Shown: positions 26 to 620 of the stretch, piece by piece
Layout of the letters: each line of letters starts with the position of its first letter
How positions within the stretch are numbered: position 1 is the stretch's first letter
From: a phage
Strand: one strand, 5' to 3'
Sequence record: DQ006826.1
DNA length: 620 bases
Position numbers and translations under genes: made by a program
The notes under the pieces: generated by a model
What the model saw: the letters and a program-made list of their open reading frames with translations, nothing else
Database searches by the model: none
What the model was told of the DNA's origin: nothing

Positions 26-620
26 ATGCCACGTTTACCTAGGGGACTTCGATTCGGAGCGAATATGGAGGTCTTAAACGACTTCCAGGAACTCTGGTAT
101 CCAGAGTCCCACATCGATTCCGATATGATCTTCCCTTTGTATACCTTCAAAGGTAACATGGGTGGTTCGTTTTTCGATTCCTACGGCACAAATAATATTG
201 TCCGTCAGGTCCGGAAGACGCCACACCGTGCTACAGTTCCTATAGCCTCTTCTGGCTTAAGGCCCTGTACCTCTGTATGGTATGACCCAGCCAGCCTGCT
301 TTTCAGAATTCCTGAAATGAGGGCTGAGTGGGACAATGGCATGGGTGACACTGGAGATATTGTCTATAAAGACTTTCTCTTCAGTGCGCCGGCACCTAAG
401 GAGTTCGATTTCTCCAATTCCTTAGCGCCACGCTACAGTAATGCCTTTTCCGCCTTTAACGCCAAGTATGGCGTCATTATCGGAGAAGGGCACGAAACAC
501 TTAAGTATTTCGCGCTATTACTTCGCAGACTACATAAAGCAGTCCGTGCCGTTCGGCACGGAGATTTACGTGGTCTCCGGAGGATCCTTGACTCTTACCA
601 TAAGGGTCATTGGAAACCTG
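26..620 (+). CDS. A2: Maturation (A2) protein of a Qbeta-like ssRNA phage, N-terminal 198 codons; in Qbeta this protein is also the single-gene lysis protein that inhibits MurA. Partial, continues past the 3' window edge.
   Basis: Uninterrupted frame from ATG 26 to the end of the window; frame 1 has about 15 stops and frame 3 has 7 before position 426. Translation: MPRLPRGLRFGANMEVLNDFQELWYPESHIDSDMIFPLYTFKGNMGGSFFDSYGTNNIVRQVRKTPHRATVPIASSGLRPCTSVWYDPASLLFRIPEMRAEWDNGMGDTGDIVYKDFLFSAPAPKEFDFSNSLAPRYSNAFSAFNAKYGVIIGEGHETLKYFALLLRRLHKAVRAVRHGDLRGLRRILDSYHKGHWKP. This is collinear with the recalled Qbeta A2 N-terminus (MPKLPRGLRFGA...RQVRRTPHRVTVPIASSGLRP...APKEFDFSNSL...FSAFNAKYG...LLLRRL...SYHNGKWKP), with roughly 60% identity by eye and one 1-residue indel. 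No database search was run. Confidence 0.9.
   Translation, partial: MPRLPRGLRFGANMEVLNDFQELWYPESHIDSDMIFPLYTFKGNMGGSFFDSYGTNNIVRQVRKTPHRATVPIASSGLRPCTSVWYDPASLLFRIPEMRAEWDNGMGDTGDIVYKDFLFSAPAPKEFDFSNSLAPRYSNAFSAFNAKYGVIIGEGHETLKYFALLLRRLHKAVRAVRHGDLRGLRRILDSYHKGHWKP
88..110 (+). other. Predicted RNA hairpin within the A2 coding region: 7-bp perfect stem 91-97/101-107 (ACUCUGG/CCAGAGU) with UAU loop 98-100, extendable by G88-C110 and G89-C109 across an A90/C108 mismatch
   Basis: Inverted repeat read directly from the sequence. The homologous Qbeta segment (GAGCUCUGG UUU CCAGACCU, from memory) can form the same stem with a different loop. Confidence 0.4.
543..562 (+). other. Predicted RNA hairpin within the A2 coding region: 8-bp perfect stem 543-550/555-562 (UCCGUGCC/GGCACGGA) with GUUC tetraloop 551-554
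   Basis: Perfect inverted repeat read directly from the sequence. The codon-aligned Qbeta segment (ACCGCGCU GUUA AGCGUGGC, from memory) forms a stem in the same register with different base pairs, which is covariation. Confidence 0.5.

Follow-up and report, generated by a model that had tools for sequence, protein, structure and literature searches.

A compensated hairpin in the A2 gene of Qubevirus, probably an architectural helix of the plus-strand genome fold

A short hairpin inside the A2 coding sequence of Qubevirus phages has a core whose pairing is maintained by compensatory change beyond what shared ancestry gives. Its core of seven base pairs is conserved and covaries across the genus, the pairing prefers the plus strand and the loop is not conserved. 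We read the hairpin as probably an architectural helix of the plus-strand genome fold, forming the apex of a stem-loop of about 62 nt within the A2 coding sequence. The structure was analysed in a stretch of 620 nt, called the window here, and compared with its relatives by alignment, tree-aware statistics and synonymous recoding.

Materials and methods

We compared the window with 25 other Qubevirus genomes (26 in total, both species), using the 5' ~900 nt of each. The relatives were M11 and MX1, fifteen Qβ-type sequences, SP, BR1, BR8, NL95, HB-P22, HB-P24 and FI, together with MAVO01000006, a metagenomic contig related to SP. UViG421, one of the fifteen Qβ-type sequences, is a viral-metagenome contig and not a cultured isolate. 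Scans of metagenomes and viral contigs contributed just two non-redundant relatives, and the 26 genomes represent 23 distinct sequences in the hairpin segment. The alignment was built codon by codon via the protein, and the hairpin segment was free of gaps in every genome. Positions are those of the window throughout unless a genome is named; window position n corresponds to Qβ nt n+32.

The tree-aware null was a tip-based simulation in which each column's own number of changes was placed randomly on the tree. As an empirical control, the stem pairs were compared with every remaining column pair that matched them in codon-position class and was similarly variable. In the recoding test, synonymous codons were resampled by each genome's own usage. 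The hairpin scan covered 579 gap-free positions and kept local hairpins of at least 5 bp that were retained in at least 93% of cells.

Results

The window has one long open frame, which starts from the ATG at 26, and the encoded protein matched the A2 structures 5vlz, 5vm7, 7lhd and 5mnt (E = 1e-77). No record searched was identical to the window; the best match was M11 with 93.4% DNA identity, and a search of IMG/VR with exact 32-mers gave no hit. Identity to MX1 (NC_001890/AF059242) was 89.7%, and identity to true Qβ isolates was ~73-75%, counted over the alignable part only. The protein showed 94% amino-acid identity to the M11 A-protein, 62% to Qβ A2 and ~40% to the group IV phages. Judged by sequence, the window can be placed as plus-strand sequence of a group III Qubevirus of the M11/MX1 lineage, and its source appears to be a distinct isolate of that lineage.

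One of the records used carries a misleading title. NC_001890.1 is named 'Enterobacteria phage Qbeta, complete genome', but bears the locus tags MX1p1-4, gave the same span and score as AF059242, and showed 90% identity to the window against ~73% for genuine Qβ. From the locus tags and the identity we judged this record to be phage MX1, not Qβ. Its A2 gene is labelled 'head maturation protease', an annotation that is doubtful.

The first-pass annotation had described UCCGUGCC-GUUC-GGCACGGA as a perfect 8-bp stem with a tetraloop, and this element was found at 543-562, where it folds in the described way (Table 1). The energy of the hairpin was -14.5 kcal/mol (z = -5.1 against 200 dinucleotide shuffles), and all eight pairs had a pair probability of at least 0.986 when the whole window was folded. 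No other perfect 8-bp Watson-Crick hairpin was present in the window. However, such a hairpin also appeared in 118 of 2000 dinucleotide-shuffled windows (5.9%), so its occurrence in a single sequence is only mildly unusual and the case for it depends on the comparison with relatives. M11 and MX1 have the same hairpin sequence as the window, and the full-length MFE folds of M11, Qβ, SP and FI all (4/4) contained 7 of the 7 apical core pairs.

Table 1. Features of the window and histories of the covarying pairs.
Feature	Position	Strand	Basis
A2 maturation/lysis CDS, partial, first 198 codons	26..619	+	ORF, protein identity, structure match
Whole stem-loop, ~62 nt: basal helix, irregular middle, apical hairpin	521..582	+	window MFE; full-length folds
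Basal helix, 5' strand, pairs with 574-582	521..529	+	RNAalifold pairs 521-524/579-582 and 527-529/574-576; covariation
Irregular middle, 5' side, lineage-specific pairing	530..542	+	single-sequence folds
Reported hairpin, 8-bp stem in M11-type lineage	543..562	+	sequence, folding; outer U543-A562 pair lineage-specific
Conserved element: 7-bp core (544-550 with 555-561) and 4-nt loop, genus-wide	544..561	+	alignment, covariation, full-length folds
Loop GUUC: Val codon GUU and first base of Arg codon	551..554	+	sequence varies across genus
Irregular middle, 3' side	563..573	+	single-sequence folds; no RNAalifold consensus pairs
Basal helix, 3' strand	574..582	+	RNAalifold; covariation as for 521-529
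Pair: C-G/U-A switched 3 times independently; unpaired in no genome	550/555		parsimony
Pair: C-G to U-A twice (M11 clade, BZ1); C-G to U·G 3 times; one C·A	547/558		parsimony
Pair: five G-C/G·U toggles; U-A once, in FI	546/559		parsimony
Pair: A·C to U-A twice	543/562		parsimony

The Qβ sequence used for the comparison in the first-pass annotation was correct. Nucleotides 575-594 of AB971354 read ACCGCGCU-GUUA-AGCGUGGC, which gives U-A at 550/555, C-G at 547/558 and G·U at 546/559, as stated there. The codon assignments hold as well: in the window 554-556 is CGG (Arg, against Lys in Qβ) and 557-559 is CAC (His, against Arg in Qβ). The length of the shared element needed correction. All eight pairs form in the window, but Qβ has A·C at 543/562, and the unit common to both is 7 bp. 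Across the sample, 543/562 was U-A only in the window, M11, MX1, FI and HB-P22; elsewhere it was A·C, U·C or U·U.

The hairpin occurred at homologous codons in 26/26 genomes, in Q. durum and Q. faecium alike; the A2 N-terminal regions of these two Qubevirus species are ~40% identical. The 7-bp core at 544-561 was intact in 24 of the 26 genomes and 180 of 182 cells were paired (98.9%), which means that the proposed pairing register is preserved in the relatives. The two exceptions were single C·A mismatches, at 549/556 in TW18 and at 547/558 in HB-P24. When the 3' partner was slid by 1-3 columns, pairing dropped from 89% to 24-54%. An alignment of allolevivirus genomes examined with RNAalifold had been proposed as a check, and the 7-bp core was predicted by this program without guidance.

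The core C·A mismatch in TW18 (576-595) and HB-P24 (561-580) changed the predicted stability from between -12 and -14 kcal/mol to -8.2 kcal/mol. In HB-P24, Arg is replaced by His, but the silent C-to-U change that accompanies this replacement in the M11 clade and BZ1 is missing, so HB-P24 may represent an uncompensated intermediate.

Three core pairs were altered on both sides, and the observed covariation score was reached by 0 of 500 shuffles. These were 550/555, 547/558 and 546/559, the pairs already singled out in the comparison of two sequences. Parsimony gave 3 independent double switches at 550/555, 2 at 547/558 and 1 at 546/559, about six in the core. The combination of Arg-to-His at 557-559 with CGC-to-CGU at 545-547 has two independent origins, one in the M11 clade and the other in BZ1. 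Under the tree-aware null, core pairing was 85.4 ± 6.4% compared with the observed 98.9% (P = 0.0004), and none of 5000 simulations equalled both the pairing and the count of doubly changed pairs. The signal was weaker (P ~0.02-0.05) when the non-conserved eighth pair (543/562) was included. Control column pairs performing equally well numbered 0 of 9424 for 550/555, 10 of 4822 for 546/559 and 48 of 4924 for 547/558. The earlier suggestion that the RNA is selected as well as the protein is thereby borne out and strengthened, with compensatory changes, some of which alter amino acids, holding in a proper alignment. A test based on same-branch substitution counts (P = 0.12) was dropped as an artefact of ambiguous ancestral reconstruction, because independent Fitch resolution of equally parsimonious histories split one change over different branches.

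The apical hairpin is part of a larger arm. In the window MFE fold, pairs were formed between 521-525/578-582, 527-533/570-576, 535-538/565-568 and 543-550/555-562, and the arm 521-582 was also found in the full-length folds of M11 and Qβ. The basal helix had 95.7% of cells paired and both-sided change in 3 of 7 pairs, for example at 523/580 (U·G, G·U and G-C). A two-helix model of basal and apical helices was 97.2% paired with 6 doubly changed pairs, which 0 of 500 shuffles reached. RNAalifold returned no consensus pairs in the middle section (530-542 and 563-573), and in single-sequence folds the register of this section differed among the M11 clade, the Qβ clade and group IV.

The hairpin scan yielded four non-overlapping hairpins (68-85, 93-105, 460-473 and 544-561), as well as the partial alternatives 532-549 and 547-563, which overlap 544-561. 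Among the scanned hairpins, 544-561 was the longest and had the most covarying pairs. The hairpins 68-85, 93-105 and 460-473 were present in 26/26 genomes, 97-100% paired, with 1-2 covarying pairs each. The last of these is Qβ 492-505, operator-like stem-loop 7 (Chang et al. 2022, PMC8880383), and it caps a conserved arm at 446-487. The 547-563 alternative (6 bp, 5-nt loop, G·U-rich) was 96% paired genus-wide with no doubly changed pair and does not form in the window, where G548 faces A562; the near-palindromic sequence probably gives rise to it incidentally.

Third-position variability was lowest at 518-545 and 80-110, where sites had 1.1-1.4 changes compared with 3.2 on average. The 518-545 segment spans the 5' strand of the basal helix and the middle section, and 80-110 spans two hairpins near the gene start. 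Compared with group III, the A2 gene of group IV contains an in-frame insertion of 66-93 nt directly 3' of the arm (after window 601), and this insertion accounts for much of the greater length of the group IV gene.

A separate long-distance pairing was seen at the start of A2. In the window fold the start region CAUGCCA (25-31) pairs with UGGCAUG at 337-343, ~310 nt downstream, and the pairing was also present in the full-length folds of M11 (56-62/368-374) and Qβ (58-65/370-376). The Shine-Dalgarno side pairs ~410 nt downstream. SP showed an analogous start pairing (47-55/450-458), and the FI fold was without such pairing. In these predicted folds the start-region pairing resembles a long-distance interaction by which, as van Duin's group reportedly proposed, A2 translation is switched off once a strand is complete.

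Five loop sequences were found in the genus (GUUC, GUUA, GUAA, GUGA and GCUA), with variation even between close relatives. The window loop, GUUC, is not a GNRA loop; this motif fits only group IV (GUAA) and FrSangria (GUGA). Judging from the aligned sequences, the helix and nothing else appears to be conserved. Seven full genomes contained no kissing-loop partner covarying with the loop, as would be expected for a contact of the R22/RT4 type known in Qβ. The best kissing candidate, Qβ 3632, failed in SP, NL95 and FrSangria, the last of which keeps UAAC despite its GUGA loop.

Rfam gave no family for the region, only two chance-level matches (E = 2.6 and 3.9) on the minus strand and far under the gathering scores. 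One of these, tsr1 at window 499-620, spans the hairpin coordinates; it scored 9.7 bits, whereas its gathering score is 235. The 42 Qβ point mutants studied by Domingo-Calap et al. include none in Qβ nt 575-594. A literature search for a function of the hairpin, or for probing or packaging-signal data on this region, returned nothing specific.

We also located the hairpin in the Qβ virion. The virion model contains 77 stem-loops, 59 of which lie within 5 Å of coat or A2 protein, and residues are given for these 59 (PMC8880383). Qβ 575-594 falls between the listed stem-loops 8 (528-541) and 9 (628-640) and is absent from the contact tables; with those 59 accounted for, it would belong to the other 18 of the 77 stem-loops, which stay away from the capsid. 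In this model, which is of medium resolution for the RNA and represents Qβ only, not an M11-type phage, the hairpin seems untouched by the capsid. It resembles the stem-loops of the contact lists in being a short stem-loop of the same genome, but differs from them in being off those lists (PMC8880383). The whole genome was traced in the virion in the 2022 cryo-EM work with the model from Beekwilder's 1996 thesis (PMC8880383).

The pairing has to be separated from the demands of the protein. The geometry of the pairs links third codon positions of the 5' arm to second positions of the 3' arm, and because of this link silent substitutions (Ala GCC/GCU, Arg CGU/CGC) go together with amino-acid replacements (Arg/Lys, His/Arg). 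No protein-level constraint accounts for silent changes in the 5' arm following amino-acid changes in the 3' arm. Third positions of the stem had 3.0 changes compared with a gene mean of 3.2; they change at a normal rate, and the stem is therefore kept by compensation and is not frozen. Position 544 was C in 26/26 genomes while its codon encodes Val, Tyr, Phe or Ile.

Could the hairpin still be a chance by-product of the protein, a conserved basic motif (R-A-V-K/R-R/H-G) that happens to be coded by a near-palindrome? The recoding test showed that the protein alone fixes ~4-5 of the 7 core pairs, the hairpin segment is among the most conserved protein stretches of the region, and the 5.9% of shuffled windows holding a perfect 8-bp hairpin point the same way. 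However, the full 7 pairs are present in every deep lineage, yet arose in just 1.5-12% of synonymous recodings, depending on the lineage, and, when intact hairpins were recoded, 0.1-4.5% of the recodings reached native-like stability. The silent changes at 547 and 550 follow the non-synonymous ones at 558 and 555, and the tree-aware null was rejected. The by-product explanation is largely refuted by these results and we regard it as hardly credible. A related question is which strand carries the selected structure. A Watson-Crick hairpin can form on either strand and the 8 pairs of the window are all Watson-Crick, which would suit a complementary minus-strand hairpin acting, for example, as a feature of the replicase template. 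Across the 26 genomes, however, 17 core cells were G·U or U·G, equivalent to C·A mismatches on the minus strand, and 180/182 cells were paired on the plus strand versus 165/182 on the minus strand. The G·U pairs favour the plus strand as the selected structure, and since G·U states also recur as evolutionary intermediates, selection on the minus-strand hairpin is very improbable.

Discussion

The roles listed for the hairpin in the first-pass annotation (replicase or coat recognition, translational control, genome packaging) were generic. Coat recognition receives no support from the contact tables of the Qβ virion model. A packaging signal, in which an operator-like stem-loop would recruit a coat dimer during assembly, would have company in the 33 sequence-diverse operator-like stem-loops that are spread over the Qβ genome, with neighbours at 492-505, 528-541 and 628-640 (PMC8880383), and in most lineages the final loop base is A. 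Against this, Qβ 575-594 appears in none of Tables S1-S3, which cover the 59 stem-loops within 5 Å of capsid proteins (PMC8880383). Moreover, the loop has 4 nt and there is no bulged A, the window, M11 and MX1 end their loop with C, and the loop differs between close relatives (GUUA, GUGA, GCUA), leaving a coat-binding signal quite unlikely. A different specific task on the plus strand is doubtful but more conceivable: the hairpin might pause ribosomes in A2 synthesis, bind A2, replicase or a host factor, or seed co-replicational folding. It is the best-conserved local hairpin of the first ~600 nt of A2, it makes no capsid contact in the Qβ model and so is perhaps free for another task, and synonymous variability is unusually low just upstream (518-545). 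However, no sequence feature is conserved beyond the stem and the loop varies, the replicase sites annotated in the SP record are elsewhere (1331-1443 and 2629-2956), and the literature searched assigns no function. An 8-bp hairpin is also a weak obstacle to ribosomes. A narrower version, in which the hairpin nucleates folding and sets the register of the A2 domain while the plus strand is being made, or else is bound by A2 or a host protein, is unlikely in our judgement; if true, it would explain why the strongest conservation and covariation in the first ~600 nt belong to an element that points away from the capsid.

We prefer the architectural role over ligand binding because the loops vary, capsid contact is absent and the loop has no covarying partner. 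A sequence-specific docking site for a protein is probably not what is being maintained. The hairpin is under selection for base pairing itself. A base change in the 3' arm, often conservative in the protein (Lys/Arg, Arg/His), is compensated by a synonymous third-position change in the 5' arm; alternatively, the pair passes via a G·U wobble. As an architectural element, the hairpin would be one rigid helix among those that give the genome a compact and defined fold. Single-stranded RNA phages need such a compact fold to resist nucleases, to prevent the plus strand from annealing to the minus strand as the genome replicates, and to fit the capsid. The C·A mismatch tolerated by the natural isolates TW18 and HB-P24 counts against the architectural role, which is also the default and hard to falsify. 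This is the longest and strongest-covarying local hairpin found genus-wide in the ~580 alignable nt, which could point to something more specific.

Helices of this kind have precedents. In RNA coliphage genomes, selection acts on helices as such, because they compact the RNA, protect it from nucleases and keep the replication strands apart. Arora et al. in 1996 for Qβ, and Olsthoorn and van Duin in 1996 for MS2, are said to have described helices under the rule 'fold as you please, but fold you must'. The A2 hairpin is like these helices in that the pairing is selected, the sequence is free and there is no known ligand, but they were identified via deletion and reversion experiments, whereas the evidence for the hairpin is comparative only. 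The Qβ translational operator, a hairpin at the replicase start reportedly described by Witherell and Uhlenbeck in 1989 (cited in PMC8880383), also has a stem of ~8 bp in plus-strand RNA, located inside a coding region or beside one. The operator combines a bulged A with a loop of 3 nt whose 3' adenine is critical; in contrast, the A2 hairpin has a 4-nt loop without a bulge, and the loop ends in C in the window lineage.

The hairpin itself is almost certainly already known. Beekwilder, Nieuwenhuizen, Poot and van Duin reportedly presented in 1996 (J Mol Biol 256:8) a comparative model of Qβ RNA covering the first three domains, ~860 nt, and Beekwilder and van Duin are said to have sequenced M11, MX1 and NL95 to derive a covariation-based structure. 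The 1996 model and the present analysis share the 5' ~860 nt, the phages Qβ, M11, MX1, SP and NL95, the use of covariation and the description of hairpins in domains. The hairpin was almost certainly drawn there, since with those same sequences no other covariation signal in the region is as strong. The present work differs from that model in its 26 genomes, tree-aware statistics and recoding test. What is new is therefore the larger alignment with its tree-aware statistics, the recoding test, the plus-strand argument and the absence of the hairpin from the capsid-contact lists.

The hairpin is an expected feature of a well-studied genome and matters little for discovery. It is of use as a teaching example, in which non-synonymous changes in one arm are offset by silent changes in the other, repeatedly and independently. 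Recoding or engineering of A2 for display, attenuation or RNA delivery should keep the pairing at Qβ nt 576-593 and the basal helix. The hairpin also offers a handy and well-controlled target for measuring how much a conserved helix without capsid contact contributes to the fitness of the phage.
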